Source of the DNA: an uncultured Gemmatimonadaceae bacterium
GTDB lineage: Bacteria > Gemmatimonadota > Gemmatimonadetes > Gemmatimonadales > Gemmatimonadaceae
Assembly (NCBI GenBank): GCA_963822945.1
Contig: CAWGJO010000020.1
Coordinates: forward strand, 672,001-736,000
DNA length: 64,000 nt
Direction: 5' to 3'
Part shown: one piece after another, positions 44,184 to 64,000 of the stretch
How the letters are laid out: every line of letters starts with the position of its first letter
Numbering within the stretch: the stretch's first letter is position 1
Position numbers and translations under genes: made by a program
The notes under the pieces: generated by a model
Seen by the model: only the letters and a program-made list of their open reading frames with translations
Databases searched by the model: none
What the model was told of the DNA's origin: nothing

Positions 44184-45707
44184 ATGGTCTTCGGCATCAG
44201 CGTCGTCGCGGCAATCGTCGCACTTCTCGCCACGCGCTGGCTAGCGCGCATCGCGCCGAGTCAGCGCGAGCCGAGTGTCGTCCCGATCACGTATCGCCCC
44301 GGCTCCGCCCCCCCGGTTCCTCGGGTGGGCGGTGTCGCCGTCTTCGTGGCCGCGCTCGTAGCCCTGGGCATTGCGGCCGCAGTTGGCGTTCCGGGAACGG
44401 GGGCGATACTTCGGCAGCCCGGCCTGTACGGTGGGATATTCGGTGGCGTCTCGCTGTTGCTCGCGGTGGGGCTCGCGGACGATTTCCTCGACCTCTCTCC
44501 CGCCATCAAGCTGCTCGCGCAGGGTCTGGCGGCGATGTTCGCGATTTCGGGCGGCCTCACGCTGCCGTTCGTGCAACTCGGCCCCCACACGACGATCACG
44601 CTCGGATGGGTGGGCATCCCGGTCACGCTGTTCTGGATCATCGCCGTTACCAACGCGTTCAACTTCATCGACGGGCTCGACGGCCTCGCGACGAGCATCG
44701 GCGTCGTCGGGTTCGGCGCGACCCTCGTCTCGGCGGCGATCCTCGGGCACTCGGATATCGTCATTCTCACCGCGGTGCTCATCGGCGCATTGCTGGGGTT
44801 CCTGCGGTACAATTTCGCGCCGGCCCGGATCTACCTGGGTGATTGCGGCAGTCTCCTCATCGGTTATCTGCTCGCCACGCTGTCGGTGGTCGGGGCGACC
44901 TCGAGCGCGAATACCGTGCTCGTTTACGCGCCCCTGTTCACCCTCGCGCTACCGCTCCTCGACGGCACCGTGGCCATCGTCCGCCGCTGGCTGCGGCACA
45001 TGCCCGTCTGGAAGGGCGACCATCGCCATATTCACCACCGTGTGCAGGCGCTGGGGTTGAGCCGCCGGCAGACGGTGGGCGTGCTGGCCGGGACGGCAGT
45101 CATGTTTGCACTCGCCGGGTTGCTCACGTCCTTCGCGGCACCGAAGCTGTTCGAGACGACGGTTCTGCTCACGGTGCTGGTGACCGCCGGCGTCGCGGTG
45201 CTTGGACTCCGCCGGCTCGACTACTACGAATTCCGCGCCGTGCGCACGGCGTGGCGTCACCGGCCCAATTCCTGGCGGCGCTTCGTGCGCGAGGAGATCC
45301 GCATGCGGGACGCCGAACGCGAGTTGGCGACGGCGCGGGATCTGAACGAACTGCGCACCGGTCTCGATCGCTGCGCGCTGGCGTTCGGGCTCGATCGCAT
45401 CGAGATTTCACGACAACGTCCCCGACCTCGCCGGTCCTGGCGAGGGGAGCACCTCGATGTTCCGGCGGGCGTTTTCGATTCCAGTGGCACCGACCCGTGG
45501 ATCCTTCGCGTCTGGCATGGCGAGTATGATTCCCCGCGACCCGACCTCGTACAGCGCGTCGCCCACGTGCTGGCCGGCGCCTGCGGCCTCTGGTTGCGAG
45601 ACTATGGCCTCGCGGGCACGCCGGCGTGGACCGTGGCCGCCGCCCGCCATCCGTCGCACGAGGGGCCGACGCTCCCGCGGGGACGTCGCCAACTCGCCAA
45701 GGCATAA
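44184..45707 (+). CDS. WecA/TagO-like undecaprenyl-phosphate HexNAc-1-P transferase (MraY-like) with C-terminal extension
   Basis: PRVGG, GLADD, NAFNFIDGLDGLA, YNFAPARIYLGDCGS, DHRHIHH. Confidence 0.9.
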   Translation: MVFGISVVAAIVALLATRWLARIAPSQREPSVVPITYRPGSAPPVPRVGGVAVFVAALVALGIAAAVGVPGTGAILRQPGLYGGIFGGVSLLLAVGLADDFLDLSPAIKLLAQGLAAMFAISGGLTLPFVQLGPHTTITLGWVGIPVTLFWIIAVTNAFNFIDGLDGLATSIGVVGFGATLVSAAILGHSDIVILTAVLIGALLGFLRYNFAPARIYLGDCGSLLIGYLLATLSVVGATSSANTVLVYAPLFTLALPLLDGTVAIVRRWLRHMPVWKGDHRHIHHRVQALGLSRRQTVGVLAGTAVMFALAGLLTSFAAPKLFETTVLLTVLVTAGVAVLGLRRLDYYEFRAVRTAWRHRPNSWRRFVREEIRMRDAERELATARDLNELRTGLDRCALAFGLDRIEISRQRPRPRRSWRGEHLDVPAGVFDSSGTDPWILRVWHGEYDSPRPDLVQRVAHVLAGACGLWLRDYGLAGTPAWTVAAARHPSHEGPTLPRGRRQLAKA

Positions 45708-45713
45708 TCCGCC

Positions 45714-46025
45714 ATGTCGCGGGAGCCGGACGTGATCCCGCTCACGCTCGCGTCGCGAGTCTCGGCGGCGCCCGACCTGATGGCCAGTGATCTGGCCGGC
45801 GAAATGGTGCTGCTGAATCTCGCCGACGGCGTATACTACGGTCTGGATGCGGTGGGGGCACACGTCTGGCGATTGCTCGACCAGCCCCGTACCGTGCGCG
45901 CAGTCGTGGACGACGTCGTCGCGCTGTATCACGTGGACCGGACTCGGTGCGAGAATGACGTACTCACATTTCTCGAGGACCTCAGCGCGCACGGTCTGGT
46001 GGTCGTCGCGGCCGACGAGCCGTGA
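45714..46025 (+). CDS. PqqD-family RiPP recognition element (lasso B1)
   Basis: DLAGEMVLLNL..GVYYGLDAVGAHVWRLL...YHVDRTRCENDVLTFLEDL..HGLV. Confidence 0.9.
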   Translation: MSREPDVIPLTLASRVSAAPDLMASDLAGEMVLLNLADGVYYGLDAVGAHVWRLLDQPRTVRAVVDDVVALYHVDRTRCENDVLTFLEDLSAHGLVVVAADEP

Positions 46026-46052
46026 CGCGACCGCACTCGCGGTGAGTCCGCG

Positions 46053-47942
46053 GTGAGCGGATTCGTCGGACTCCTGGCCGGCGAGGGCGACGCCGTCGAT
46101 CCGCTCCTGCTGCACCGCCTCACCGACGGACTCTCGTACTTCGCGCCGGACGGCACCGCCGCGCGCACCAGCGGTCGCATCGGCCTCGGCTTTGCCGAGA
46201 GCCGGCACACGCCCGCGCACGCCGGCCAGCGTCCCCCACCGGTCTCGATGCCGGCCACCGACGACCGGGGCACGTGGGCCGTGGCCGATGCGAGCTTCAC
46301 CCAGCGCGACCGACTGGTGCGCGAACTCGGTGCCGTAGGACTCCGCCTCGACTCCGATGCCGGTGAGGCACAGCTCCTCCTCGCGGCTTATCGAGCCTGG
46401 GGAACGCGATGCGTCGAACACCTGCACGGCGACTTCGCCTTCGCCCTGTGGGACGACGTCCGCCACCGCCTCGTGCTCGGCCGCGATCGATTCGGCGTCG
46501 CACCGCTCTACTACGCGCACGCCGGCAGCACGCTCCTGTTCTCCAATTCGCTCGACCTCGTCCGCGCGCACCCGCTCGTCTCGTCCGCGTTGGACCCGGC
46601 CGCGATCGGGGACTTTCTCCGCATGGGCTCGAACACCGACCTCGCGACCACGGTCTTCAGCGCCGTCCGCTGCGTGCCGCCGGCCCACGTGCTCGTCGTC
46701 ACCGACGCCGCCACCCGGCTGACCCGCTACTGGGACCTGCCGACCGGTACCGCACTCGCCAACGCGCGCGTGGAGGAGTACGCCGAGCAGTTCTTCACCG
46801 TGCTTCAGGACGCCGTGGCCGATCGGCTTCTCGGACTCGACGATGCCGTGTTGTTCATGAGCGGCGGGCGTGACTCGACCGCCATCGCCGCCGCGGCGCG
46901 GTCGATCGTTCGCGGCCACCCCCCCGAACTGCACGCGGTGACGGCCGTATTCGACTATGCCCTGCCGGATCAGGAGCGGGAATACGCCGCCCTCGCCGCC
47001 GGTGCGCTGGACCTTCCGGTGGAGTTCGTGGCCCAGGATGAGTACCGGTGGTTCGAGGAGTGGGAGCGCGACGACCTCTGGCGTCCGGAACCGGTCGAGG
47101 CCCCGCTCCTGGCAGCCGAAACCGATTTCACCGCGCTCGCCGCGACCCGCGCCCGGGTGGCGCTCACGGGAGAAGGTGGCGACGCGGTGCTTCGCGAGCG
47201 GGAGTCGCATCTCGCGCGTCTGCTCATGGCGGGACGGTGGATCCGGGCCGGCATGGAGTCGCTGACGTACGTGCGCTGGCACCGTCGATTCCCACGGCCA
47301 GGATTCCGGCGGTTGCGCGCCCGCCGGCTGGGACTGGCATCGGTGCACCCCCCCGTTCCGCCCTGGTTGCGCCGGGACCTGATCGCGAGCGCCGGCCTGC
47401 AAGAGCGGTGGGCTGCTCTCGAATTCGAGGAGCGTCGCATCCCCGAGCCCGGCGCGTTGCGACCGGAGGCCTACACCAGACTCCGCTCCGGATTCTGGCC
47501 GCGGGGGTTCGAGGCGGAGCATCCGGCAGCCACCGGAATTCCACTGACCACGCGCCACCCCTATTTCGACGAGCGCGTGGTGGAATTCCTGCTCTCGCTG
47601 CCACCGGTGCAATGGGCCAACGACAAGGGAATTCTCGTGGCCGCGATGCGTGGCCGCCTGCCCGATCGTGTGCGGCTCCGGGGAAAGACACCGCTCGTCG
47701 GCGACGGCTACGAGATCGCGTTTGCTGCCGCCGGTCATGTGCGGCCGACACGTGAGGATTTTTGTGAGGAAGCCCTCGAGTACATCGATCCGGACGCACT
47801 TTTCGATCGGACGGCGGAGATGGACGCGTCCGATTCGTGGGATTGGACTCGGGCCTACAGCCTCTCGCTCTGGCTGTCGCGACGGACCGCGGGACGCGGG
47901 CTTCAACGCGCCGTCGCCGCGGCCCAACCCGATGCCCCGTGA
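46053..47942 (+). CDS. Lasso peptide cyclase (asparagine synthetase-like, C protein)
   Basis: N-terminus MSGFVG (no Cys1), GDFAFALWD, RDRFGVAPLYY, MSGGRDS ATP loop, LTGEGGD, HPYFDERVVEF; lies between the RRE and a lasso precursor. Confidence 0.85.
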   Translation: MSGFVGLLAGEGDAVDPLLLHRLTDGLSYFAPDGTAARTSGRIGLGFAESRHTPAHAGQRPPPVSMPATDDRGTWAVADASFTQRDRLVRELGAVGLRLDSDAGEAQLLLAAYRAWGTRCVEHLHGDFAFALWDDVRHRLVLGRDRFGVAPLYYAHAGSTLLFSNSLDLVRAHPLVSSALDPAAIGDFLRMGSNTDLATTVFSAVRCVPPAHVLVVTDAATRLTRYWDLPTGTALANARVEEYAEQFFTVLQDAVADRLLGLDDAVLFMSGGRDSTAIAAAARSIVRGHPPELHAVTAVFDYALPDQEREYAALAAGALDLPVEFVAQDEYRWFEEWERDDLWRPEPVEAPLLAAETDFTALAATRARVALTGEGGDAVLRERESHLARLLMAGRWIRAGMESLTYVRWHRRFPRPGFRRLRARRLGLASVHPPVPPWLRRDLIASAGLQERWAALEFEERRIPEPGALRPEAYTRLRSGFWPRGFEAEHPAATGIPLTTRHPYFDERVVEFLLSLPPVQWANDKGILVAAMRGRLPDRVRLRGKTPLVGDGYEIAFAAAGHVRPTREDFCEEALEYIDPDALFDRTAEMDASDSWDWTRAYSLSLWLSRRTAGRGLQRAVAAAQPDAP

Positions 47943-47983
47943 CCAGGAGCGCGGCATGTGACACCCGTCATGGCACGTATAGG

Positions 47984-48012
47984 GTGCAAAAGTCTATTGG
48001 CATTCATATACT
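47984..48012 (+). promoter_or_regulatory. Internal sigma70-like promoter for the precursor (GTGCAA-N17-TATACT)
   Basis: AT-rich patch in the 130-nt gap between cyclase and precursor; near-consensus -10 with 17-nt spacer. Confidence 0.55.
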
Positions 48013-48072
48013 TGCGCCGTGGCGACCGCACGCCGCCCCCAAGGCCTTCCGCGCTTCTCGATGAGACGCACC

Positions 48073-48279
48073 ATGAAACCGAGTACTGACGATTCGATCA
48101 AACACGCGAATGCGACACAGGCGTCATCACCCGTCGGTCGTCATTCCGTGAGCCCGGACGCCGACACCTATGTGCCGCCGCGTCTGCTCGTCTACGGGGT
48201 GGTCCGCGACCTCACGGCCTCGGGAGGCCGCGTGGGCAAGCACGACAAGGCGGTCAAGCACTCGCGGACCGGCTTCTAG
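48073..48279 (+). CDS. Lasso peptide precursor (A); predicted core SGGRVGKHDKAVKHSRTGF at 48220-48276
   Basis: Leader YVPPRLLVYGVVRDLTA places Y-17, P-14, L-12, G-8, T-2; core starts with Ser and has Asp9; start could also be 48061 or GTG 48148. Confidence 0.88.
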   Translation: MKPSTDDSIKHANATQASSPVGRHSVSPDADTYVPPRLLVYGVVRDLTASGGRVGKHDKAVKHSRTGF

Positions 48280-48364
48280 CCTGAGCGTCGAACGCGCCGT
48301 CGCGTTCGCCGGCCCCGGTGCCCTGTCGGGGAAGGAGCACGCAGCGTATCGTGCGCGCATCACC

Positions 48365-49348
48365 ATGGCGTCCTTCCATTCCCGCGCGTTCGGACTGCGC
48401 ATCGAATCCGATGCCCGCATTGCGGGCCTGCCGGCCGCGGCCGATGAAGCGCCGGCTGAGCTCCGGATTCACATGGGATCGTTGCCCGATACCTTCGATC
48501 CGGCCGACCCCGCAATTCGAGAAGTCTGGCATTCGGAGCCGAACGCCGGCGACGACGCGGATGCCGTCGCGCTGTTCGCCACGGACGACGGCGAGTGGCT
48601 GGTCCTGCTGTATGCCGACGGCACGCGTTTCGTGCTCGGGCACGCGGGCACCGAGATCTGGGCGACCTGGCCCGCCACGAGCTCCGAGGCGTCGACGGCG
48701 ACCTACCTGCTCGGGCCCGTCATCGGATTCGTACTCCGGCTGCGCGGACTCACCTGCTTCCACGCCAGCAGTGTCGTCATCGCCGGCCGGGCGATTCTCA
48801 TGCTCGGACCCGCCGGCATCGGCAAGTCGTCGATAGCGGCCGCGCTCGCACTGCGCGGGCATCGCGTGATCGGCGACGACATCGCCGTCGTGCGCCGGCA
48901 GAACGATCAGTGGGTCGTTGCCGCGGCGGTTCCCGGTGTGCGGCTGTGGGACGACATGGTGGAAACACTGCTCGGGCGGGCGGATGCTCTCCCGCTCCTG
49001 ACGCCCGGATGGGAGAAGCGCCAGCTGGACCTTCGCGATGCGCCGGCCGGGTTTGCGTCCGACGCCGCGGTTCCCCTCGGGGCCATCTACGCCCTCTCCA
49101 CGTCCGGCCCGGACGCGGAGCGCCTGCGCGGCCGGGAGGCGCTCCTCGCGCTGGTCGCGAACACGTACGCGAACGTACTGCTGACGCCGCAGATGCGTCG
49201 TGCGGAGTTCGCCGAACTCTCGTCGCTCGTTCAACGGGTGCCGGTGTGGCGGGTCGGCGTTCCCGACAGGTCGCAGGGGCTCGACGCATTCTGTGCATGC
49301 ATCGAGGCCGCGGGCGAGTCCTCGGACTACGGTCCCGGACTGCCATGA
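48365..49348 (+). CDS. HPr kinase-like P-loop kinase (lasso tailoring kinase type)
   Basis: YLLGPVIG, FHAS, Walker A GPAGIGKS, GDD motif, RLW. Confidence 0.82.
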   Translation: MASFHSRAFGLRIESDARIAGLPAAADEAPAELRIHMGSLPDTFDPADPAIREVWHSEPNAGDDADAVALFATDDGEWLVLLYADGTRFVLGHAGTEIWATWPATSSEASTATYLLGPVIGFVLRLRGLTCFHASSVVIAGRAILMLGPAGIGKSSIAAALALRGHRVIGDDIAVVRRQNDQWVVAAAVPGVRLWDDMVETLLGRADALPLLTPGWEKRQLDLRDAPAGFASDAAVPLGAIYALSTSGPDAERLRGREALLALVANTYANVLLTPQMRRAEFAELSSLVQRVPVWRVGVPDRSQGLDAFCACIEAAGESSDYGPGLP

Positions 49349-49385
49349 CGCACCCACGGGTCATCGTCTCGGGGTTCGAGAGCAC

Positions 49386-50609
49386 GTGAGCACCGCGCTC
49401 GTCGAGCCTGCCGGCAGGGTGGTGAACCTCTCCGCCACCCACCGCCTGCTTTGCGCGTGCGCGCGTCGCGCCGACGATGCGGACTTCCCACTTCTTGTGG
49501 CGGAAGACTCCTGGGAGTCGGTCGACTGGGGATCGTTCCCGGCGCTCCTCATCCGCCACGGCCTGCAGGCTCTGGCCGGCGCCCATCTGGCCGGCGCGCG
49601 TGACCGCATGCCCGAGTCGGTGTGGCGGGACATTCACGCCAGCGCGATGGCGGCCCGTGCGGAGGCGCTCGCTCTTGCATCCGAGCTGTTCAGAATCCTG
49701 GACTGCCTGGCCGCAGCCGGGGTGGACACGTTGCCTTACAAGGGGCCCCTGCTGGGATGGGAGGCATACGGCGACCTCGGCGCACGGCCATCGGTCGATC
49801 TCGATCTCCTGATATGTCCCGCCGACCTCGAGACCGCGACCGCTGCACTCCACGAGCTCGGCTACCAGCCCGAATATCACTTCTCACCCGCCGAGGAGCG
49901 CTGGTTTCGCCGAGTCGACGGTGACTACCCGTTCGATCACGGCGTCACCGGCCGTCTCGTCGAGCTTCACGTCCGCGCCCTGTCGCGACGGTTCGGGCCC
50001 GGGCCAACGACGCCGGAACTCCTTGCGCGCCGTCGCGTCCTGCCGGTGTCGGGTCTGCCCGTCGCCGTGCCCGACGTGGATGATCTCTTCTACCTGCAGG
50101 TCGTGCACGGCGCCAAGCACCGATGGGAGCGGCTGGAGTGGGTGGCCGCCACCGCCGGACTTCTGCGGCTCCGCGACGGCGACGTATCCGCGCTCCATGG
50201 CAGCCGTTACCCAAACGCGCGCGCCGTGTTGCTCGGATGCCGGCTGGCCCGTGATCTCCTGGGCGCGCCGGTCGACGCCGAAACCCTGGCGCGAATGGGC
50301 AACGACCCTATGATCGAACGACTCGCGGGCGACGCCGTCCGGCGCCTGTTCGACGATGCCCGAACGGCCGACGATGGGCCCGACACCACGGCCGCCAAGC
50401 TGTGGTTCAACTTCCGGCTGCAGCGCGGGGTGGTAGCACGAATCCGGTTCCTGTATCGCTGGGTCTTCTGGCCGTCTCCGGAAGACTGGGAGCGATTCCG
50501 GCTGCCGGACCCCATGTTCTTCGCGTACCGCCTGACACGCCCCCTCCGACTGTTCTGGCGATACGCGCGGCGGATTCCCCGTCACGAGACCCGGACGCGC
50601 CATGTCTGA
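49386..50609 (+). CDS. Nucleotidyltransferase family protein (NTP_transf_5-like)
   Basis: LPYKGP, YGDLGARPSVDLDLLI (DxD), VELH, HGAKHRWERLEW; GTG start inferred. Confidence 0.82.
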   Translation: MSTALVEPAGRVVNLSATHRLLCACARRADDADFPLLVAEDSWESVDWGSFPALLIRHGLQALAGAHLAGARDRMPESVWRDIHASAMAARAEALALASELFRILDCLAAAGVDTLPYKGPLLGWEAYGDLGARPSVDLDLLICPADLETATAALHELGYQPEYHFSPAEERWFRRVDGDYPFDHGVTGRLVELHVRALSRRFGPGPTTPELLARRRVLPVSGLPVAVPDVDDLFYLQVVHGAKHRWERLEWVAATAGLLRLRDGDVSALHGSRYPNARAVLLGCRLARDLLGAPVDAETLARMGNDPMIERLAGDAVRRLFDDARTADDGPDTTAAKLWFNFRLQRGVVARIRFLYRWVFWPSPEDWERFRLPDPMFFAYRLTRPLRLFWRYARRIPRHETRTRHV

Positions 50610-52341
50610 ACGACTCATGCACGACCTCCGGACGCTGGGACGACGGCTGGTGCGCGTACAGGGCGCGCGCACGGCCGGGGTTCTGGCGCTCACCGTCGTC
50701 AACATGGCGGCGCAGGGCGCCACGGTCGCGTTGCTCGTCCCCTTGCTGCGGGTCGCGGGCGTGCCCACGGGAGGCGGCGTCGTGGGCGCGATCGACCGCG
50801 GCATCCAATCGGCCTTCCACCTCGTGGGGCTCACGCCCACGCTGCCCGCGGTCCTGGTGCTCTTCATCGCGATGGCGTGGGCCCAGGCGATGCTCGAGCA
50901 CCTGGAACTGGTCCAGACCACGCGTCTGGAGCAGGCGCTCGTGCGGGAGTTGCGGGAGACGTTGTATCGTCAGCTGTTGGCCGCGCGCTGGCAGTTCTTC
51001 ACCGACCGCCGCGGTTCCGATCTCACCCACGCCGTCACGCGGGATGCCGACCGGGCAGGAGCGGCCGTCGGCTTCCTCTTCCGAGCGGTGGCGCAGTTCG
51101 CGAGCGTGATCATCTACGGTGTGCTCGCGATCGCCATCTCGCCGGCGGCCTCGGGCGTCGCGCTCGCGGGCGGTCTCCTGCTCGCGCTGCTGCTCCGGCC
51201 CGCCTTGCGGAGCGCGCATGCCACCGGCGAGGCCTTGAGTTCGATCTCCGCCGACGCACTGGCGCTGGTCACGCAGCACGTGGACGCGATCAAGCTCGTG
51301 AAGAGCTATGGCGCCGAGTCGCGCACGCTCGCCGCGTTTCAGGCGGTGGCCGCGCAGTCGGCGGGTTCGGCGGTGGACGCCACGCGCGCCCATGCCCGCG
51401 CGCACGTCGCCACGATCGCGGGCTCGGCCACGCTGTTGGGCGCCATTCTGTTCGTGGCGATCGAGACGTTGCACCTCGATGCCGCGACGACGCTGGTGCT
51501 CGCCTTTCTGTTCTGGCGTCTGGTGCCACGGCTGATGGACGTACAGCAGAGCTTGCGGTACGCGGTGCACGAACTTCCGGGATTCCAGGTCGTGCGAAGG
51601 CTGCTCGAGGCATCGGCGGATGCCCGCGAGGTCGGGGCATCCGAACCCACGGCCGCGCCGATGACGGTCCATACCGGAATCGCGTTCGAGAGCGTGTCGT
51701 TCGCGTACGACACCGTGCCCGTGCTGCACCAGGTGTCGTGCGTCATTCCGGCCGGACGCATCACGGCCTTCGCCGGTCCATCCGGTTCAGGAAAGACGAC
51801 GCTCGTCGATCTGGTGTTGGGCCTGGTCACGCCCAGCGCCGGCACCATCCGCATCGACGGCGCGCCATTGACGGCCGAGCAACTCCCGGCGTGGCGTGCC
51901 GCGGTGGCGTACGTCCCGCAGGAATCGCTGCTCTTTCACGACACGATTCTCGCCAACTTGCAGTGGGCCAATCCGCGCGCTGCGGCCTCGGACGTCTGGG
52001 AAGCCCTGCGTGGGGCGGCGGCCGATGACTTCGTTCGCCGGCTGCCGGCCGGGCTCGATACGGTGGTCGGTGATCGCGGCGTGCGTCTCTCGGGGGGAGA
52101 ACGCCAGCGGCTGGCGCTCGCGCGCGCCCTCCTGCGGCGGCCGGCGCTCCTCGTGCTGGACGAGGCGACGAGCGCCGTCGACGCGGAGAGCGAGGGGCGC
52201 ATTCTCGACGCGATCGAGGTGCTTCGCGGATCGATCACGACCATTCTGGTGAGCCACCGTGCGGCCCCGTTGCGGCGGGCCGAGATCGTCTACCAGCTCA
52301 GCGACGGGACGATCGCGCCTCAGCTCTCCGCCGCGGAGTAG
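50602..52341 (+). CDS. ABC exporter, fused TMD-NBD, no peptidase domain
   Basis: About 6 TM segments, GPSGSGKT, YVPQE, LSGGERQR, LDEATS, SH. Confidence 0.93.
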   Translation: MSERLMHDLRTLGRRLVRVQGARTAGVLALTVVNMAAQGATVALLVPLLRVAGVPTGGGVVGAIDRGIQSAFHLVGLTPTLPAVLVLFIAMAWAQAMLEHLELVQTTRLEQALVRELRETLYRQLLAARWQFFTDRRGSDLTHAVTRDADRAGAAVGFLFRAVAQFASVIIYGVLAIAISPAASGVALAGGLLLALLLRPALRSAHATGEALSSISADALALVTQHVDAIKLVKSYGAESRTLAAFQAVAAQSAGSAVDATRAHARAHVATIAGSATLLGAILFVAIETLHLDAATTLVLAFLFWRLVPRLMDVQQSLRYAVHELPGFQVVRRLLEASADAREVGASEPTAAPMTVHTGIAFESVSFAYDTVPVLHQVSCVIPAGRITAFAGPSGSGKTTLVDLVLGLVTPSAGTIRIDGAPLTAEQLPAWRAAVAYVPQESLLFHDTILANLQWANPRAAASDVWEALRGAAADDFVRRLPAGLDTVVGDRGVRLSGGERQRLALARALLRRPALLVLDEATSAVDAESEGRILDAIEVLRGSITTILVSHRAAPLRRAEIVYQLSDGTIAPQLSAAE

Positions 52342-55920: not shown

Positions 55921-57058
55921 GGGCCACCTCGGCGTAGAGGGCGGCCATGCGCCGTGCGCATTCCTCCCACGTAAACCGGCCGGCCTGGGCCGCCGCCGCC
56001 CGGCGACGCTGCTGCCAACGATCGGGGGCCGTCGCCCGCTCGACCAGCAGGCCCCCGATCACCGAGGCCCAGCGGTCCACATCCGCCACCGCCGCGTAGC
56101 TCGCTGCCGTTCCCCCCACCTCCCGGAGCACCGGCAGGTCGCTGGCCACCACCGGCGTGCCGCATGCCATTGCTTCCACCACGGGCAACCCGAATCCCTC
56201 GGCTTCGGACGGCAGGAGCACCAGCGCTGCCCGGCGATAGGCGTCGGCCAGAACCTCCCGCTCTACCCGCGGCATCACCGTGATCGCTCCGTCGACGCCC
56301 AGCCGGCGGGCGAGCGCCCCCTGCGGGGCCGTGAACGCCCCGCCGATTCGGACCAGGCGCGCGTCCGGCACGGCATCGCGCACACGCGCGAACACGGTGA
56401 GCAGCACGTCGATCCGCTTGCGCGGAATCGTGCTGCCAACGTGCAGCAGCATCGGGGCGACGGTGCCGGCGGCCGCGGCTCCACTGATGGCCGGCGTGAA
56501 GGCGGGGTGGACCCCCAGCGGCACCACTTCGAGCCGCGTCGTGCGCAGCCCATGTTGCACCAGGGCGTCGCGTGTCGCCACGCTGTCGCAGGTCACCACG
56601 GCCGCGCGGCGCAGCCCGTCGAGCACGCGCTGTGTCATGCGGCGGAACATGGCGCCACGAGACTCGGTGGCTGGATCGAACAGCGACCGGAACGCGTCCA
56701 CGTCATGACACGTGACGATGGTGTGCGCGGCGGGAAGTTCGTGTACCAGGTGCGCATAGGTATGGTCCACGACGTGATACGCGTCGTGTCGGCCGCGGTG
56801 CCGGCGCAGCCATCGCGGATACCGGCGGTGACGGTCCAGATAGCGATTGGCGTTCACCACGGCCTGCACGTGCGTCATCCGGGCAGTGGTCGCCGGCCAG
56901 CGCGGCATCGCCGGACGGATCCGCACCGGATCGACTGCTGGCGCGGGCACGGCCGGCAGTGTGCGAAGCAACTCGTCGGCCACGAGATCCATGCTCGGCC
57001 AGTGCTCCTCGAGCAGGTCGCAGACGATTCCCACACCCAGCGGCGCGCCGGCGGTCAT
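55913..57058 (-). CDS. GT4 glycosyltransferase
   Basis: VTCHD, VGSTIPRKR, EGFGLPVVEAMACGTPVV; ATGA-coupled start. Confidence 0.9.
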   Translation of the reverse strand: MTAGAPLGVGIVCDLLEEHWPSMDLVADELLRTLPAVPAPAVDPVRIRPAMPRWPATTARMTHVQAVVNANRYLDRHRRYPRWLRRHRGRHDAYHVVDHTYAHLVHELPAAHTIVTCHDVDAFRSLFDPATESRGAMFRRMTQRVLDGLRRAAVVTCDSVATRDALVQHGLRTTRLEVVPLGVHPAFTPAISGAAAAGTVAPMLLHVGSTIPRKRIDVLLTVFARVRDAVPDARLVRIGGAFTAPQGALARRLGVDGAITVMPRVEREVLADAYRRAALVLLPSEAEGFGLPVVEAMACGTPVVASDLPVLREVGGTAASYAAVADVDRWASVIGGLLVERATAPDRWQQRRRAAAAQAGRFTWEECARRMAALYAEVARA

Positions 57059-57834
57059 CGGGGCCGGCAGACGAACCACGCCTGGCTGGCGAACTGGGGG
57101 CCGAGCCAACTCAGCGGCGAAAATCTGGTATCGATCACGCGAAAGGTTTCGCTCACCCGCTTGCGCATGGCCCGCCAATTGAAGCCTTTGTGTCCGTGAT
57201 ACCGATTCGGGATTCCGCTCTCGAACTCGGTCTCGTATACCGGTCGCTCGACCACGACCCGGTCACCCGGCGCGAGCATGCGGACGAATTCCCGCGTTCG
57301 ATACGTCTCCCGATGTCGATAGTCGCTCGATACACGCCGCGCGGCCACCGCCCGTGCGGCTTGCTTCACGACCAAGGGAAGGCCGGTCTCCACCGGAACG
57401 CTGATGATCACGCGTCCATCGTCCGCGACGAGCCGGCGCATGCGCGCCAGCGCGACATCCACGGCATCGGGCGGGCAGTGCTCCAGCACCTCGGTGCACA
57501 GCACGACGCCGAAGTTCCCCGGCGGAAGGGCGTCGCTCTCCTGGGCGAGCATGAACCGCAGGTCCCCCAGTTGCCCGAACCGTTCCGTGCAGACGCGCAC
57601 GAGCCCCGGGTCCACCTCCAGTCCCACCGATCCGGGAAACCGCTCGTGCGCCAGGGCGAGAAACGTCCCGTCGCCGCACCCGTAATCCACCAGCGGCCGT
57701 CCGCTGCCGGGCGCCACGAGGCTGAGCGCCGTCTCGAATCGACGACGGTGGCTCCACGACAGGATCGAGCACCCGCCGAACAGCTGCTTTCGGGCGTAGG
57801 TCCCTGCCGCGAGTTGTTGATCGTCGGAACGCAT
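57055..57834 (-). CDS. Class I SAM-dependent methyltransferase
   Basis: VDYGCGDG, CTEVLEH, IISVP. Confidence 0.88.
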   Translation of the reverse strand: MRSDDQQLAAGTYARKQLFGGCSILSWSHRRRFETALSLVAPGSGRPLVDYGCGDGTFLALAHERFPGSVGLEVDPGLVRVCTERFGQLGDLRFMLAQESDALPPGNFGVVLCTEVLEHCPPDAVDVALARMRRLVADDGRVIISVPVETGLPLVVKQAARAVAARRVSSDYRHRETYRTREFVRMLAPGDRVVVERPVYETEFESGIPNRYHGHKGFNWRAMRKRVSETFRVIDTRFSPLSWLGPQFASQAWFVCRPR

Positions 57835-58985
57835 CAGGATGCCACCAGTTGCTGGAAGAACGTCAGGTGTTGTCGTGCGACCACGGACCAGGCGAAGTCG
57901 TGTTCGGCGCGTGCGCGGCCACGGGTACCCAAGTCGCGGCGGAGGCCGGCGTCGCTCAATACGGTTTCCAGCGCCGCGATCCAGCCGTCGCGATCACCCT
58001 CTCCCACGACGAGTCCCGCGTCGCCGATGACATATGGAATCTCGCCGCTGTCACTCCCCACCACGGGCACCGCGCAGGCGAACGCTTCAACGATCATGCG
58101 GCCGAACTGTTCGCGCCAGCCGGGCGTGGTCTGGCTCGGCGCCGCCAGGACGTCCATCGCTTGCAGATACGGCGGCACGTCGTCGTGCGAGATGCCGGTG
58201 GCAATCCGGACCCGGCCATCGTGACGCGTGGCGAACTCGCGCAGCCGGTCCTCCCATGGCCCGCCGCCCACGAACAACGCGCGCCACGCGACCCCGCGAC
58301 GGTGCAACGCCCCCAACGCGTCCAGCAGCATCGGCAGTCCCTTGCTCTCCACGAACCGTCCCAGATACCCGACGACGGGAATACCGTCGGGGTCCCACCC
58401 GAGCTTGTCGAGCAGCGCCGTCCGCGCGGCCGCATCCGGCGCGAACCGGGCCAGGTCCACGCCAAATGGAATCACCGCGTGCGGGCGGGCCGCATACATC
58501 GGCCGGTGCGCCAGCGTTGCCTCGATCGACCTGCCGAACGCGATCCATCCCCGTGCGCGACGCATGCTGTAACGCTCGATCGCGCCGAACGGCGGCGGGT
58601 ACCGCTTCTCGATGTTCTGAAAGCTGGCGAACACCAGTGCGCCCCGGGACCGGTTCGCCCGCGCCACCTGCGCCGCCGACAGCACGTACGGCTCCTCCCA
58701 GCAGTGGATCACGTCCCACGGTTCGTCCATTACGGCTCCCAGCCCCCCATAGGTCATCACGTGCACCTGCGACGCGAGCCTGACCGGAAGCCTCCGGAGG
58801 TCGCATCGTTCGTCCGGATCGTGCGTCGTGACGATCGGTGCGAGGTCACCGGGATAGCGGTTCGGCGCCGCCACCGTGACCGCCCAGCTCCCGCCCGCTT
58901 CCCGGCCAATGGCTTCCGCCAGTTCTCGGTTGCGGCGTACGCAGTACGAGTGACCGATCGTCAGCAGCCGCCGGGGTCCGCTCAT
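57834..58985 (-). CDS. GT4 glycosyltransferase
   Basis: WEEPY, YLGRFVESKG, PSQTTPGWREQFGRMIVEAFAC. Confidence 0.9.
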   Translation of the reverse strand: MSGPRRLLTIGHSYCVRRNRELAEAIGREAGGSWAVTVAAPNRYPGDLAPIVTTHDPDERCDLRRLPVRLASQVHVMTYGGLGAVMDEPWDVIHCWEEPYVLSAAQVARANRSRGALVFASFQNIEKRYPPPFGAIERYSMRRARGWIAFGRSIEATLAHRPMYAARPHAVIPFGVDLARFAPDAAARTALLDKLGWDPDGIPVVGYLGRFVESKGLPMLLDALGALHRRGVAWRALFVGGGPWEDRLREFATRHDGRVRIATGISHDDVPPYLQAMDVLAAPSQTTPGWREQFGRMIVEAFACAVPVVGSDSGEIPYVIGDAGLVVGEGDRDGWIAALETVLSDAGLRRDLGTRGRARAEHDFAWSVVARQHLTFFQQLVAS

Positions 58986-59902
58986 GCCGGTCCCCGGTAG
59001 TGCGGCGACTCCTGCGTCAGCCGGCGCCATTCGCGAATCGTCGCCCAGCGAACGGCGTGACGCTGCGCCAGTGCCTCGCGCAGATCACGCCCGATCCACC
59101 CGAGAATCAGCCGGAAGCCGCCCGGATCGTGCACCTTCCAGCCTCGCCGCATCTGGAAGTATGCGCGCAGTCGCATCGGCACGCGCACCGCGAGCAGGAG
59201 CAGCGGATCGTTGTAGATGGAGGCGAGCACGCCGTTCCGTACGGTGAGGTGCAGGTAGCGGCGGGCGTCGCGTCCCGCCGGGTCGGTCAGGTGGGCGATC
59301 CGCGCCTCGGGCAGATACACCACGTGCCAGCCCGCATCCAGTGCGCGCAGACACAACTCCCGTTCTTCGCCGTTGATGTTCAACTGTCGCCGGAATCCGC
59401 CGAGCGCGATGAACGCCTCCCGCCGCACCAGGTGCGCGAACCCGATGAACGAGGCCACGTAGCAGGAATGAGCCACCGGCGCCGGTTGGGCGCCCGCGGG
59501 CCATGGCTTCCCGTCGGCTTCCGCCTGCGCGAACGCGACGGCCAGGAGCGCCGGATCTCCATCCATCGTCTGCCGGGCACGTCGGATCGCATCGCCGGAC
59601 AGCAAGACGGTATCGTCGTCGAGATTCAGCACGAACGGCGACCGGGCCTGGAACACGGCTTCGGACCGCGCCGCGGCGAGCCCCTGCCCGGAATCGAAGC
59701 GCAGGACGCGCAGCTTCGCCTGTTCGCGCGGACTCAACGCGCTCCGTACGCGCGGTTCCAGCGGCTCCGGGGAGCCATCATCCACGATGATGACTTCGTC
59801 GAGGATATCGTCGATCGCGGCCAGCGACGCGACACACCGTGCAAGCGACTCCGGCCGCCCGCGGCTCGCGATACCGACCGACACCCGGTTCGCTTCGCTC
59901 AT
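58982..59902 (-). CDS. GT2 glycosyltransferase
   Basis: IIVDDGS, NLDDD (DxD), GEERELCLR. Confidence 0.9.
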   Translation of the reverse strand: MSEANRVSVGIASRGRPESLARCVASLAAIDDILDEVIIVDDGSPEPLEPRVRSALSPREQAKLRVLRFDSGQGLAAARSEAVFQARSPFVLNLDDDTVLLSGDAIRRARQTMDGDPALLAVAFAQAEADGKPWPAGAQPAPVAHSCYVASFIGFAHLVRREAFIALGGFRRQLNINGEERELCLRALDAGWHVVYLPEARIAHLTDPAGRDARRYLHLTVRNGVLASIYNDPLLLLAVRVPMRLRAYFQMRRGWKVHDPGGFRLILGWIGRDLREALAQRHAVRWATIREWRRLTQESPHYRGPA

Positions 59903-61050
59903 GCCGTCCCCCGCCGTACGGCGATCGCCGCCCGATACGACTCCACCGTCCGCTCGGCGGTCCGCGCCCAGCTGTGCGCAGCGGCCAGGGGATACGCCGC
60001 GGCGGCCAGCCGTTCGCGCAGCGCCGGATCGCGCAGCAACCGGCGCATCGCGGCAGCCAGGTCTTGCGACGTGCGCGGCGCCACCAGCAGGCCGGTTTCC
60101 CCGTCACGAATCAGCGCGGGCGCGCATCCGACCGGCGTCGAGACGACCGGCAGCCGCTGGCTCATCGCCTCGACGATCACCATGCCGAACCCTTCATAGG
60201 TGGACGGCAGCACCAGCAGATCGTGCGAGCGATACTGCCGCATGACCTCTTCCTCGCTCACCCGCTGCAGCACCGTCACGGCGCCGCGTGCGTGTGGCGC
60301 GAACTGCGACAGCACGGCCGCTTCCGGCCTCCCGGCGCCGACGATCGTGAGCCGGGCATCCGGCATCGCCGCCGCGACGTCGGAGAACGCCGCGGCCAGG
60401 TAGCGCACGCCCTTCACGTCGTCCCAGGTGCCGCAGAACAGGATGCCCCGGCCCCGCGGCGCGCCGGGCGGTGGCGCGCTGTCGAGGAACCGCGCCGACA
60501 CACCGTGGGGAACGACGTCGATGGCATCGCGCGACTTCCACCGTCGAGTGGCCGCGAAATCGGCATCGGCCGCGTTGAGCACGATCATCCGGTCGGCCAG
60601 CCGCGCCGCCAGCGCCACCTGGGAGAGTCGCGCCGCGGGATACCACCACCGGCGGTACCACCCCTTGCGGGTCAGGCCGGCGGCATCGTCGTCCAGCAGG
60701 CGCTGGTAGTTGCGGTGCTCCAGTCCGTGCGATCGGCTCACCAGGGCCACTCGGGACGACGGGGAGAGCGCCCGCCGGAGCCCCAGCATGCTGCCTTCCG
60801 CGCTCGCCACGTCGATGACGTCGTACGGTGCGGTCGCGCGCGCCACGGCTCGCGCCGCGAGCGCCGGCGCCACCGCCCAGCGGATCTTCGCCTGACCCGG
60901 CCGCACACCGAGTTCCGGGGCCAGCATCAGGTCGCATCGATGACCGAGTTGCTGCAGCTCTTCCTGCAATTTGTAGTACACCTTGCTCGAGCCGAGCCGC
61001 GAGTCGGCGGCATAGTCGCCGAGCAGGAGAATGCGCAGCGGCTCCGTCAC
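59899..61050 (-). CDS. GT4 glycosyltransferase
   Basis: VVPHGV, KG, PSTYEGFGMVIVEAMS; GTGA-coupled start. Confidence 0.9.
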   Translation of the reverse strand: MTEPLRILLLGDYAADSRLGSSKVYYKLQEELQQLGHRCDLMLAPELGVRPGQAKIRWAVAPALAARAVARATAPYDVIDVASAEGSMLGLRRALSPSSRVALVSRSHGLEHRNYQRLLDDDAAGLTRKGWYRRWWYPAARLSQVALAARLADRMIVLNAADADFAATRRWKSRDAIDVVPHGVSARFLDSAPPPGAPRGRGILFCGTWDDVKGVRYLAAAFSDVAAAMPDARLTIVGAGRPEAAVLSQFAPHARGAVTVLQRVSEEEVMRQYRSHDLLVLPSTYEGFGMVIVEAMSQRLPVVSTPVGCAPALIRDGETGLLVAPRTSQDLAAAMRRLLRDPALRERLAAAAYPLAAAHSWARTAERTVESYRAAIAVRRGTA

Positions 61051-62219
61051 GGCGCCTGCGACCTGCCGCGGGACGACAGCAACACCTCCACACTGCGTGT
61101 GATGTCGAACCGCCGTGCATAGAGTTCGGCAGCGGCCTCTCCGATGCGCCGACATCGTTCACCGTCCGCCAGTAGCCGCACGACGGCGTCGCTCATGGCG
61201 TCCGGCAGGGCGCGATCCGCGAACACCACCGCCCGGCTCATCTCCCACTCCGCCTCGGTAGCCGAACCACGGTTCGTCACCACCGGCATGCCGTTCACGA
61301 GCGCTGCCATGAGCGTGGTGCGCCGTCCACTCGCCCCATCCGCGTACGGCTGAAGCATGACGTCGCAGGCCCGGATGCACGCCGCCACGTCATCGGCGGG
61401 CAGCGTCTCCGTCACCGTCACCCGGGCCCTCCAGTCGGCAGTGTTCGCGCACAGGTGGCTCGCCAGCGCCTCACCACCGGCGCCGATGAGGCACACCCGC
61501 ACGTGGCGTTGCTCCGCGAGCAGGCGCGCAAGGGTCGGTTCGAGCAGTTGCGTGACCAGCGCACCGTAGGTCCCGAAATGCCCGACGACGCGCGTGTCGG
61601 GCGCCGGCGCGAGCCAGTCCCGCCATTCGGCGATTCTCGTCTCGTCCACGGCCTTCGGCACCGACGATGCGATCGGCAACCACACGAACCGCCGCGCCCG
61701 CGGTGCATACCGCCGCAGGCGGCGCTGCCATGCCTCGGTGGAGACGTACGCCACGCGGATGTCCGACAGCAACAGTACCGCCATCATCCGGTTCACCACG
61801 GCGAGCACGTTACGGTGCAGGGGCCAGGCCGCGAACGGGTAGAAGGGTTCGTGAAACATCACGCGCACGTCGTCGCGATGCTCGCGCGCCCGGTGCTGCA
61901 CCCAGCGGCAGAAGCCCACGTTCATGCCGCGCGCCCCGAACGCCTGGGCTACGTACTGGACGAGGATCGTGTGCGGTCCCGGCAGCTGGTCCAACTCCGC
62001 CGTCAGATATTGCAGCCCCGCATCGCCGAACCCGCCGGCGAGGCGATGGACCTGAACACGGGAGCCGCCGGTCTCCCCACCCTCGACCGCCGGCGCCCAG
62101 ACGTGCACCTCGCATCCGGCGGCCGCGAGCGCACGCGCCAGCACGGCCGTGTAGTCGCTCACCCCGCCGGACTGCGGCGGATATTCGCCGGTGATGAGAT
62201 GCCACGGGCGTTCCGTCAT
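61047..62219 (-). CDS. GT4-like glycosyltransferase
   Basis: GEYPPQSGGVSDYT, MFHE, HFG, PYADGASGRRTTLMAAL. Confidence 0.85.
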   Translation of the reverse strand: MTERPWHLITGEYPPQSGGVSDYTAVLARALAAAGCEVHVWAPAVEGGETGGSRVQVHRLAGGFGDAGLQYLTAELDQLPGPHTILVQYVAQAFGARGMNVGFCRWVQHRAREHRDDVRVMFHEPFYPFAAWPLHRNVLAVVNRMMAVLLLSDIRVAYVSTEAWQRRLRRYAPRARRFVWLPIASSVPKAVDETRIAEWRDWLAPAPDTRVVGHFGTYGALVTQLLEPTLARLLAEQRHVRVCLIGAGGEALASHLCANTADWRARVTVTETLPADDVAACIRACDVMLQPYADGASGRRTTLMAALVNGMPVVTNRGSATEAEWEMSRAVVFADRALPDAMSDAVVRLLADGERCRRIGEAAAELYARRFDITRSVEVLLSSRGRSQAP

Positions 62220-63400
62220 GCAGGTCCCTGTGATCGTGCGTCCGACAGCACGCGCTCCAGCACGTCCACGTGGCGGGAGAGGTTGAGGCGCTCGGCCATG
62301 CGCCGCGCGCCGACGCGCAGCGCGCGCAGTGTGGCGTCGTGGGCCCGCGCCTCCGCGAGCGCACGGGCCAGTCCGGCCACGCCCTCGTTCGCCTTCACCA
62401 GCCACCCGTTCTCGCCGTCGCGCAGCCAACTCTCGATCCCGCCCACGTTGAATCCGATGGCTGCGGCGCCATAAGCGCCGCCCTCGAGCCCCGTGAGCCC
62501 GAACGGTTCGGGCCATACACTCGGTACGACGACAACGGACGCCGAGCGGAACAACTCCGCGCGCCGCGCACCGTCCACCCATCCGGGGAACTCGGCCGGA
62601 ACATCCAGCGACTCGGCGAGCGATTCCCAGTCCTGACGGGCCGGTCCGTCCCCGGCCAGGGTGAGCGGAATCTTCACCCCGAGCTGGGTCGCCGCCTGCG
62701 CGGCCGCCCGGATCAGGACGTCACCGCCCTTCAGGGACGTCATCCGGCCCACGAACAGTGCGCGAAACTCGCTCGGAAGCGGCGCCGGCCGCACCGGCAT
62801 CTCGGCCGCGAACAGCGGGTTCGCCGTCACGCGCGACGCGGGCACTCCATTGGCCACGTATTCTCGCCGCATGTGTTCGCTCGGCGCCACGATCGCGACA
62901 TACCGGCCAAGAAGCGCGTGCTGCGACCGGGCCCATGTGTACTGCGTCGCCAGCGCCCGCACACTCCACTGGCAGCAGTGCCGGGGCAGGTACAGCGCGG
63001 CGCACGCCACACCGAACCGCCGGCCGCACACCACCGGCTGGGGAAAGGCGTGCATCTTGAACCCGCCGATGCACGTCCCGACGTATCCGTGGACCATTTT
63101 CGCCACCGGCATCCGATCCAGCAGCTTCTTGTCCACGGACAGGGCGCGCATGTTGTGCGAGAACGCGATGTCCGGACGCCACGCCGAGGCGGCGCGGACG
63201 GCCGCGGATACCCCCGCCTCGTCCACGCAGAAATGGGGCGCGGTGGCCCCCGCCGGCGAATCCGATGGCGTGCGCAGCCGGTCGACGTGCAGGAGCGCCA
63301 GCTCGTGGCCCCGTCCGCGGAGCCGGCGCGCGATGGCTGTCAGATACGTCTGCACTCCACCGGCGTCGCCCACGCCATCATTGACCAGAAGAATGCGCAT
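62216..63400 (-). CDS. GT4 glycosyltransferase with Cys-rich insert
   Basis: GGVQTY, FVGRMTSLKG, PSVWPEPFGLTGLE. Confidence 0.9.
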   Translation of the reverse strand: MRILLVNDGVGDAGGVQTYLTAIARRLRGRGHELALLHVDRLRTPSDSPAGATAPHFCVDEAGVSAAVRAASAWRPDIAFSHNMRALSVDKKLLDRMPVAKMVHGYVGTCIGGFKMHAFPQPVVCGRRFGVACAALYLPRHCCQWSVRALATQYTWARSQHALLGRYVAIVAPSEHMRREYVANGVPASRVTANPLFAAEMPVRPAPLPSEFRALFVGRMTSLKGGDVLIRAAAQAATQLGVKIPLTLAGDGPARQDWESLAESLDVPAEFPGWVDGARRAELFRSASVVVVPSVWPEPFGLTGLEGGAYGAAAIGFNVGGIESWLRDGENGWLVKANEGVAGLARALAEARAHDATLRALRVGARRMAERLNLSRHVDVLERVLSDARSQGPA

Positions 63401-63403
63401 CGT

Positions 63404-64000
63404 TCAGTCGCGCTCCCGCCGGGCGTGAGCCCCCGACCGTGTGACCGTGCGCACCGCTGCCGTCAGCGTTCCGGCCGCCGCCGCGACACTCATGCGGCGG
63501 CGCCAGGTCTGCAGGCGTCGCGCATCCTGGTTCGCGATGGTCGAATCCCAGCGTTCGTGGAACACCATGGCGTTGCGGAGTGCCGCCGCCTGACGCCGCT
63601 CCGACGGCGTCCGGCTGTACGTGGTGCTCAGGAGATGTTCGTACGCGCCGTCGCGTTCGAACCCGTGCGTCGCCACCTTCCATCCCGCCGCCCGAATGCG
63701 AAAACAGAAGTCCGCTTCGTCCCATTCGGTGGGCCGGAACACCTCGTCCAGCGGCCCCACACGATCGATGCATGCCCGCCGCACCGCCCACGGCCGCATC
63801 ACCGCGTCCACCTCGGTCAGCCGCAGCCAGTTGAACGGCCCGCTCCCGATGGTGCTCTCCAGCCGTCGCCAGTCGACCGAGTCGTCGAACGTCCTGATCG
63901 GTTCGTCCACCGGGTGGCAGCGCAGGCCCCGGCTGAGGCTCAGCAGCCCGATGTCGGGGTACGCGTCGAACGTGGCGAGCAACTCCGGCACGAACCACCC
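63404..64000 (-). CDS. GT2-like glycosyltransferase, 5'-truncated by window edge
   Basis: VGPLDEVF.PTEWDEADFCFRIRAAGWKV; frame open to the window end. Confidence 0.78.
   Translation of the reverse strand, partial: GWFVPELLATFDAYPDIGLLSLSRGLRCHPVDEPIRTFDDSVDWRRLESTIGSGPFNWLRLTEVDAVMRPWAVRRACIDRVGPLDEVFRPTEWDEADFCFRIRAAGWKVATHGFERDGAYEHLLSTTYSRTPSERRQAAALRNAMVFHERWDSTIANQDARRLQTWRRRMSVAAAAGTLTAAVRTVTRSGAHARRERD

Follow-up and report, generated by a model that had tools for sequence, protein, structure and literature searches.

A lasso-peptide cassette in a polysaccharide island of Gemmatimonadaceae as a candidate maturation hub for genome-dispersed cationic precursors

Why should the genes for a tailored lasso peptide lie inside a polysaccharide locus? 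The question is raised by a stretch of 64,000 nucleotides from an uncultured Gemmatimonadaceae bacterium (positions 672,001 to 736,000 of contig CAWGJO010000020.1, assembly GCA_963822945.1; hereafter the window), in which a cassette for a peptide that is made on ribosomes and modified after translation (RiPP), comprising a RiPP recognition element (RRE), an Asn-synthetase-like cyclase, a lasso precursor, an HPr-kinase-like kinase and a nucleotidyltransferase (NTase), is flanked by a wecA-like gene and an ABC exporter gene and runs into a convergent operon of wzc and glycosyltransferase (GT) genes. The seven co-oriented genes named in the original prediction are all present, each with the family match that had been claimed (Pfam/NCBIfam profiles), and the unit does end in an overlap with the wzc operon, of 22 nt between the ABC and wzc genes. 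The window is part of a 958-kb contig (C20) of a 3.97-Mb genome that is 88% complete (G000), and its nearest named relatives by cyclase, among the best 80 of 562 loci, are Gemmatimonadaceae with 57-95% identity. We give about an even chance to the reading that the cassette would be a single maturation hub for cationic lasso peptides encoded at dispersed sites in the genome, that these peptides would be phosphorylated on a tail Thr and then capped with sugar, and that the hub would be housed in a Wzc/Wzy-type island without covalent coupling to its glycan.

The precursor encoded in the window has the features of a lasso precursor, namely a YxxPxL leader, Thr-2 and Asp at core position 9. Its 49-residue leader contains Tyr-17, Pro-14, Leu-12 and Thr-2, and the predicted 19-residue core (48220-48276) places the ring acceptor at Asp9 (48244-48246) and a tail Thr at position 17 (48268-48270). 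The precursor motif has two matches in the genome and none in the reversed genome, and its occurrence is not a matter of chance. One precursor is encoded in the cassette and one elsewhere, at G000:C22:25318-25518 (minus strand), which belongs to the same [RK]TG[FY] family; its neighbour, which from its sequence we take to be an elongation-factor-P-like gene, has homologues adjoining stand-alone precursors in several relatives. A profile made from 24 precursors and run on 17 genomes of the genus rendered 50 matches in 15 of them (none in G015 or G016): 14 in the cassette, 34 stand-alone and 2 in a second cassette. All 34 stand-alone precursors keep Gly3, Gly6, Asp9 and a C-terminal [RK]TG[FY], and the window core likewise ends in [RK]TG[FY] and has Gly3. 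No RRE, leader peptidase B2, kinase or NTase gene was found within ca. 2.8 kb of the stand-alone precursors in the 27 regions examined, 26 of which lacked any match to the RiPP and glycan profiles, the remaining one having an Asn-synthetase-like match. The 46 cores measured have 17-24 residues and a net charge of +3 to +9, and Asp9 and Thr-2 are retained in essentially all precursors. G010 retains five intact stand-alone precursors, its in-cassette one being degraded; this decay may be a sequencing error, because further frames of the island are broken in the same assembly.

A second component of the pathway also appears to be located elsewhere. No B2 gene is present in the cluster, the only PF13471 matches over the cut-off in the genome lying at C1:26553 and C35:67610, and in no genome of the genus is there such a match at the cassette. 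The gap between RRE and cyclase is 16-28 nt in 12/12 relatives. Since G035, from a sister genus, has the same gene order but with B2 between RRE and cyclase, B2 has likely been lost from the cassette in the genus of the window. The orphan B2 of this genome (G000:C35:67535-67939, L002) scores 50.7 bits with NF033537, against a cut-off of 33, and keeps the invariant Cys and His. It lies beside genes that we take to be queC/queE-like, and across the genus it mostly adjoins the same genes, presumably DUF3311-like and transporter genes. The orphan is found in 12/12 cyclase-positive relatives of the genus (the copies of G003, G007 and G013 being contig-end fragments) and was not found in G015, G016 and G008 (98, 80 and 80% complete, respectively); in G015 and G016 cyclase, orphan B2 and precursors are absent together. 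In a sample of 150 genomes of the family it occurs in four of the five members of the genus and in one of the 145 others, and the four family genomes outside the genus that have this cyclase all carry B2 in cis. G004 has the orphan and two precursors with no island, the flanking housekeeping orthologues also being missing from its assembly. We further compared 36 distant loci, of at least 18 kb and from outside the genus, kept from the best 80 of 562 once the near-duplicates L052, L072 and L087 had been dropped, and scored them with local profiles and with Pfam on 267 further proteins. Fifteen of them lack B2 within 10 kb (local profile), and in the five of those genomes that were checked B2 is found elsewhere.

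The other B2 match belongs to a different cassette (L001, G000:C1:26155-31284), which encodes an RRE, B2, a His-rich precursor ending in Ser, a kinase, a two-part ABC transporter and an NTase, with no cyclase. The same type is cyclase-free in G006, contains a cyclase in G001, G009 and G010 (and as a fragment in G005), and is present in both versions, in tandem, in G012. Its product is possibly a linear metal-binding phosphopeptide that arose by duplication and loss of the cyclase. We regard the B2 of this cassette as a second choice for a general partner in trans, the C1-type cassette being found in 7 of the 17 genus genomes and the orphan in all 12 of the cyclase-positive relatives counted above. 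An unrelated RRE-kinase-NTase cassette without cyclase or B2, in which the NTase is fused to a long C-terminal part, is found at L241:6677-10081 (G016:C41) and L242:3752-7478 (G008:C137).

The want of a B2 in cis could also mean that no lasso is made, the product being an unthreaded branched cycle or a linear phosphopeptide, or that the leader is trimmed by a protease of general function, for example the S41 peptidase encoded nearby. None of cyclase, RRE and leader reaches its NCBIfam lasso cut-off, the genome has the cyclase-free C1 cassette, and pseudomycoidin forms in Escherichia coli without B proteins and is not threaded when unmodified (PMC6993621; this and the other papers cited here are used from partial texts). 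We nevertheless consider this explanation very unlikely, in view of the retention of Asp9 and Thr-2, of a cyclase that is full-length and in an open frame in 12/12 relatives, of an orphan B2 that tracks the cassette, and of the presence of the S41 peptidase in G015, which has no island.

The motifs of the RRE, cyclase, kinase and NTase of the cassette are intact. The cyclase retains the SGGxDS motif, has an N-terminal Ser where an amidotransferase has Cys, and scores higher with NF033535 than with TIGR03108 (151.7). Glutamine amidotransferases require Cys1. This residue is absent from the cyclase in 12/12 relatives, and the amidotransferase of the G155 island starts with Met-Cys; a function as an amidotransferase of exopolysaccharide (EPS) synthesis was rejected on the lack of Cys1 and the adjacent RRE and precursor. 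The kinase keeps the His, the Walker-A Lys and the Asp-Asp motif. In an alignment of 56 sequences the NTase shows K119, G120, R134, D138 and D140 as invariant, with the DxD pair kept. No solved relative of the NTase was found by sequence search; the best matches of its modelled fold are MenT1 (Z 12.8, rmsd 3.3, 179 residues aligned) and ANT(2'') (Z 12.1, rmsd 3.1, 164 aligned). FKRP, an enzyme by which a phospho-ligand is passed on to a glycan, is also among the fold matches (rank 14, Z 7.5, rmsd 4.0, 151 aligned). Judging from the model, the fold is generic, and the fold search does not tell nucleoside monophosphate (NMP) transfer apart from phospho-ligand transfer.

Where would the kinase act? 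Characterised lasso kinases modify a C-terminal Ser (PMC9266682), and other characterised kinases of this kind modify Ser3 (PMC10368454, PMC13381572). Neither site is available here, because C-terminal Ser is absent from the window core and from all 34 stand-alone cores, and core position 3 is never Ser or Thr in these sequences, being Gly in every one of them. The tail Thr of [RK]TG[FY] is the predicted phosphorylation site, since it is the only invariant hydroxyl residue of the cores. In the bsf system of Bradymonas sediminis the RRE stimulates phosphorylation at a non-terminal residue and the S3T variant is accepted, so that Thr can be a kinase substrate (PMC10368454). When 62 kinases that have a precursor upstream were placed in a FastTree phylogeny, the group that includes the window kinase comprised 27 rows and had weak support (81); 25 of its 27 cores have Thr in the last five residues, and the 20 Ser-ended cores fall outside it. 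This correlation is not independent evidence, because the group members are kin. Besides these enzymes, an S-adenosylmethionine (SAM)-dependent methyltransferase of ca. 385 residues lies between kinase and NTase in L117, L121, L124 and L125 (G011, G013, G018 and G035) and occurs in many distant loci; it is absent from the window, and the Arg/Lys-rich cores are its possible target.

A route can be proposed from these elements. The RRE would bind the YxxPxL leader, and the Thr of [RK]TG[FY] would be phosphorylated by the kinase while the precursor is still linear. The orphan B2 of C35 would then remove the leader in trans and the cyclase would link residue 1 to Asp9, as lasso chemistry suggests, and the NTase, by analogy with PsmN, would be needed for the addition of one or two hexoses to the phosphate. 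For the cyclised core of the window the calculated monoisotopic mass is 2005.07 Da, and it would be 2085.04 Da with phosphate and 2247.09 Da with phosphate and one hexose. More speculatively, the strongly cationic product might be exported and, being expressed together with the polysaccharide, might bind non-covalently and so act on the cell surface or within the matrix.

The relation between the peptide and the polysaccharide genes, which had been described as wired into each other, holds as co-conservation across the genus and fails as obligatory coupling. The order wecA-RRE-cyclase is intact in 12/12 cyclase-positive relatives and continues through to wzc in 10 (contig ends are reached in the other two); either module, on the other hand, also occurs alone. 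In G008 the same arrangement is found in pieces, with the cyclase cut by a contig end, and for that reason the classification of this genome as cyclase-negative was dropped. Two genomes of other genera extend the association: G035 shares the cassette order together with orthologous glycosyltransferases, and in G018 orthologous GT genes, wecA, wzc and wza are divergent from the cassette, in a rearranged order. As for the modules alone, in G016 wecA is joined to the ABC gene and faces wzc and the GT genes (intact as far as seen), the genes from RRE to NTase being missing; 13 bases that match the start of the G010 RRE exactly are still present at the junction, which points to the peptide genes having been deleted secondarily. 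G155 has an orthologous glycan operon and no RRE, kinase or NTase in ca. 78 kb, and complete lasso cassettes lie amid housekeeping genes, without glycan genes nearby, in G083 and G178. Among the 145 family genomes outside the genus the cyclase is present in four, the marker GT in five and both in two.

The 36 distant loci were considered to have a polysaccharide neighbour when there was, within 10 kb, a wzc, wza, wecA or Wzy_C gene, or else two or more glycan genes. Fifteen had one (two owing to wza alone and two to Wzy_C alone), five had one glycan gene and 16 none; with the local profiles only, the figure was 10/36, versus 177 of 3100 windows (5.7%) taken in the own genome. 'Wzc' matches in L057 and L080 adjoin ParB, were treated as ParA and were not counted. 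Judged from gene arrangement, the polysaccharide link is recurrent, conserved across the genus and optional in both directions. The ABC exporter can be assigned to neither module, because it is kept with wecA in G016, which lacks the RiPP genes, G010 has a broken copy, and the loci of G007 and G035 have none; the transported substrate may be the peptide or a lipid-linked glycan. The tailoring pair of kinase and NTase also recurs by itself beside polysaccharide export genes: in L197-L199 (G171:C1:1729000-1734000) and L167 (G035:C24) it adjoins wza/wzc, accompanied by an RRE-like gene but by no lasso cyclase.

Such a link invites the explanation that peptide and glycan are joined covalently, the NTase activating the phospho-Thr peptide for phosphodiester transfer to a lipid-linked repeat unit or to the finished polysaccharide, which would be exported via Wzc/Wza; the glycan would still be made without the peptide, but undecorated. 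The position of wecA, co-oriented and a few bases 5' of the RRE in 12/12 relatives as well as in G008 and G035, is consistent with it, as are the permanence of orthologous GT genes by the cassette after the G018 rearrangement, the excess of polysaccharide neighbours over the genomic background, and the Longimicrobium cassettes of L049 and L053, which adjoin wza, the former behind homologues of a barrel-like gene of the island. Hexose-on-phosphate chemistry exists (PMC6993621), LppN is inactive outside its own locus (PMC13381572), and FKRP appears among the fold matches of the NTase, but it ranks below ordinary NMP transferases such as MenT1 and ANT(2''). PsmN, moreover, is active in E. coli in the absence of its own capsule genes (PMC6993621), 16 of the 36 distant loci and both G083 and G178 lack glycan genes nearby, and G016 and G155 retain the glycan operon without peptide genes. 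On balance we think a covalent conjugate unlikely. The same doubt applies to its fullest form, in which a dispersed library of polycationic lasso peptides, phosphorylated on the tail Thr by one hub, would be grafted through a phosphodiester by the PsmN-like enzyme to give a capsule decorated with RiPPs; G016 would then be a naturally undecorated strain.

It could also be the case that chance has brought the cassette into a mobile envelope island and that it makes free cationic antibiotics, the charge of which is masked by the phosphate/sugar cap, as self-protection, until export. Net charges of +3 to +9 recall lariocidin, a highly cationic lasso antibiotic (PMC11451635); several diverged precursors would suit a role in conflict; the whole 29-kb island is absent from G015, and gene turnover is fast, with methyltransferase, ABC and B2 genes gained or lost. 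A chance association fits poorly with glycan neighbours that are, across phyla, roughly five to seven times as frequent as in the background, and with the same co-location in Bacilli (PMC13381572). The ring from residue 1 to 9 and the tailoring are unlike those of lariocidin (Ser1-Asp8), and the exporter is broken in, or missing from, the locus of three relatives that retain the rest. A hitch-hiking antimicrobial seems to us, for these reasons, improbable.

Several observations weigh against the maturation hub as we propose it. G008 has the cassette, yet no orphan B2 was found in its 80%-complete genome. A quick B2 tree of 69 rows, the backbone of which is unresolved, does not join the orphan and the B2 that G035 has in cis, and the closest outside relatives of the orphan sit in RRE-B2-kinase cassettes (Longimicrobium, G193). 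The B2 of the C1 cassette could serve instead of the orphan, and the formation of pseudomycoidin without B proteins in E. coli (PMC6993621) bears on the need for either. The kinase group that contains the window kinase has weak support (81%), its members are related, and the core classes were defined after the sequences had been seen. Finally, co-location in 15/36 loci versus ca. 6%, together with survival of the association through the G018 rearrangement, suggests a tighter link than mere co-housing.

The genes of the cassette and of the island, as far as they lie in the window, are listed in the following table.

Table. Genes of the lasso cassette and of the convergent polysaccharide operon in the window (scores in bits).
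Gene or product	Position	Strand	Profile matches and other evidence
wecA-like; polyprenyl-phosphate sugar-1-phosphate transferase of the WecA/MraY family, at the head of the island	44184..45707	+	PF00953 128.5 (cut-off 27); TIGR02380 123.6 (below cut-off 326)
RRE / B1 (PqqD fold)	45714..46025, or GTG start 45732	+	PF05402 72.7 (cut-off 23.4); NF033536 77.2 (below cut-off 80)
Lasso macrolactam cyclase (C)	46053..47942	+	PF00733 and GATase_7; best NCBIfam NF033535 255.5 (below cut-off 525)
Precursor, 68 aa	48073..48279	+	NF033521 16.3 (below cut-off 19); leader and core motifs
HPr-kinase-like peptide kinase	48365..49348	+	PF07475 40.4; aligned to HprK 1jb1, E 8e-8
PsmN-like nucleotidyltransferase (NTP_transf_5)	49386..50609	+	PF14907 138.5; model pLDDT 92, NTase fold
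MsbA/HepA-like ABC exporter	50602..52341	+	ABC_membrane and ABC_tran; best NF045513 HepA 271.8 (below cut-off)
Wzc polysaccharide co-polymerase/tyrosine autokinase	52320..54788	-	TIGR01007 184.1; TIGR01005
GT4 glycosyltransferase a	54775..55920	-	PF00534
GT4 glycosyltransferase b	55913..57058	-	PF00534
SAM-dependent methyltransferase	57055..57834	-	PF13489/PF08241
GT4 glycosyltransferase c, HpsO-like	57834..58985	-	PF00534; NF038298 179.3 (below cut-off)
GT2 glycosyltransferase a	58982..59902	-	PF00535
GT4 glycosyltransferase d	59899..61050	-	PF00534
GT4 glycosyltransferase e	61047..62219	-	PF00534/PF13692
GT4 glycosyltransferase f	62216..63400	-	PF00534
GT2 glycosyltransferase b, 3' part; gene and operon run past the window end	63404..64000	-	PF00535 on the whole gene

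The operon facing the cassette in the window has six GT4 genes rather than the five first counted, with two GT2 genes and one methyltransferase gene, as had been stated (Pfam). Traced beyond the window, it totals nine GT4, two GT2 and three methyltransferase genes and a Wzy-like gene, and is followed by two further genes and by the gene for a 206-residue Wza, with which the island ends at G000:C20:745213. The wecA-to-wza block, of 29,030 bp, behaves as an island, because it is cleanly absent from the relative G015. It holds a Wzx/Wzy-type set consisting of initiating transferase, GTs, Wzy-like protein (Wzy_C 28.6, below the cut-off of 31.7), Wzc and Wza; no Wzx flippase gene is found in the island, the PF01943 matches of the genome lying at C21:133589 and C20:898918. 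The two genes that converge on the short Wza (G000:C20:743026-745213; L004:9027-11214) encode Pfam-less proteins of 312 and 200 residues with signal-peptide-like N-termini, and for the larger there is a weak lead to a YjbH-type barrel (an atlas cluster of which 32% carries PF06082). Short OPX proteins paired with beta-barrels are described in the literature, as far as partial texts tell. A homologue of the 312-residue protein heads, with a second secreted-type gene, the lasso operon of Longimicrobium L049, which is divergent from wza and has no GT genes within 10 kb.

The claim that the RRE starts only 6 nt after the wecA stop is right for the ATG of the window and wrong as a conserved start, that ATG being missing in the 95%-identical G012; most relatives favour a GTG start ca. 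21-27 nt past the wecA stop. The wecA-RRE gap, as read from these sequences, is short, but not unusually so. In a sediment metatranscriptome 7% of the words were matched, and the contigs on the region were shallow and mostly less than 95% alike; none of the eight listed pieces (of 77) crosses the wecA-RRE junction. A scan of 43800-53000 gave no promoters and two terminator-like sites, both within genes and fewer than in shuffled sequences. A frame of 14 codons (49345-49389), which overlaps the stop codon of the kinase gene with its start and the GTG start of the NTase gene with its end, is a possible bridge for translational coupling. Upstream of the island, at 40095-40991 (plus strand), a chromosomal gene encodes a replication initiator domain of the plasmid type (PF10134, 72.5 bits) and is conserved 5' of the S41 peptidase gene across the genus, including the genomes without the island.

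The role of kinase/NTase-tailored lasso peptides, and of their residence in capsule loci, is stated to be unknown in the Discussion of PMC13381572. The genus studied here supplies a precise new candidate phosphorylation site, the tail Thr of [RK]TG[FY], and indicates that the genes of one lasso pathway can lie at three or more separate loci, in which case mining based on clusters would miss the protease and most of the precursors (34/48 stand-alone). It also offers natural comparisons, with glycan genes alone in G016 and, elsewhere, the cassette alone in G083 and G178.

Among known systems, lariocidin and triculamin resemble this one by their short, highly positive and Gly-rich cores, a likeness drawn from their description and not from sequence comparison; their ring has eight residues (Ser1-Asp8 in lariocidin), and no kinase/NTase pair or polysaccharide island is described for them in the available part of PMC11451635. 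A dedicated GT that glycosylates a mature lasso peptide is known (PMC11912497), and lasso clusters of Gemmatimonadota are counted but not described in the part of PMC11316326 available. In the literature within our scope, which left out most subscription papers, no report was found of a tail-Thr site or of a lasso pathway with a protease in trans and scattered precursors. The bsf cluster shares with the window a Gram-negative host and the set of A, B1, C, D, kinase and nucleotidyltransferase genes; it differs in that its site is Ser3 in the ring, where the window has Gly3, in its Ile-2 leader, where the window has Thr-2, in its B2 in cis and, as far as the source describes it, in having no polysaccharide border (PMC10368454).

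The original prediction knew of no characterised lasso peptide of such a lineage or architecture. As to the architecture, this no longer holds in view of the pba/lpp clusters of Paenibacillus alginolyticus, published in 2026, in which lasso, kinase, NTP transferase and MsbA-like transporter genes lie inside capsular loci of Bacilli and are up-regulated jointly with an EPS gene, the product remaining undetected (PMC13381572). Those clusters have B2 and a signal peptidase in cis, and LPP is linear and phosphorylated on Ser3; no signal peptidase gene was found among the cassette genes of the window (Pfam/NCBIfam profiles), and a cyclase is present, unlike in the LPP type. They are restricted to Bacillota in that source, in the available text of which the word 'gemmatimonad' does not occur (PMC13381572).

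The closest likeness drawn at the outset was to the pseudomycoidin (psm) and paeninodin (pade) clusters of Bacillota, and it holds for the enzymes: a split RRE, a cyclase, an HprK-like kinase with His-Lys-Asp-Asp, an NTP_transf_5 protein with DxD and an ABC exporter are common to them and the window (PMC6993621, PMC9266682). PsmN is required in E. coli for one or two hexoses on phosphorylated pseudomycoidin, and no neighbouring capsule locus appears in the available part of that account (PMC6993621). Two of the features that define those systems, a C-terminal Ser and a B2 within the cluster, fail here, and because of this we set the window system apart from pseudomycoidin and paeninodin. In their place it has a predicted internal tail Thr, a B2 outside the cluster and dispersed precursors and, unlike either, a diderm host and strongly cationic cores.

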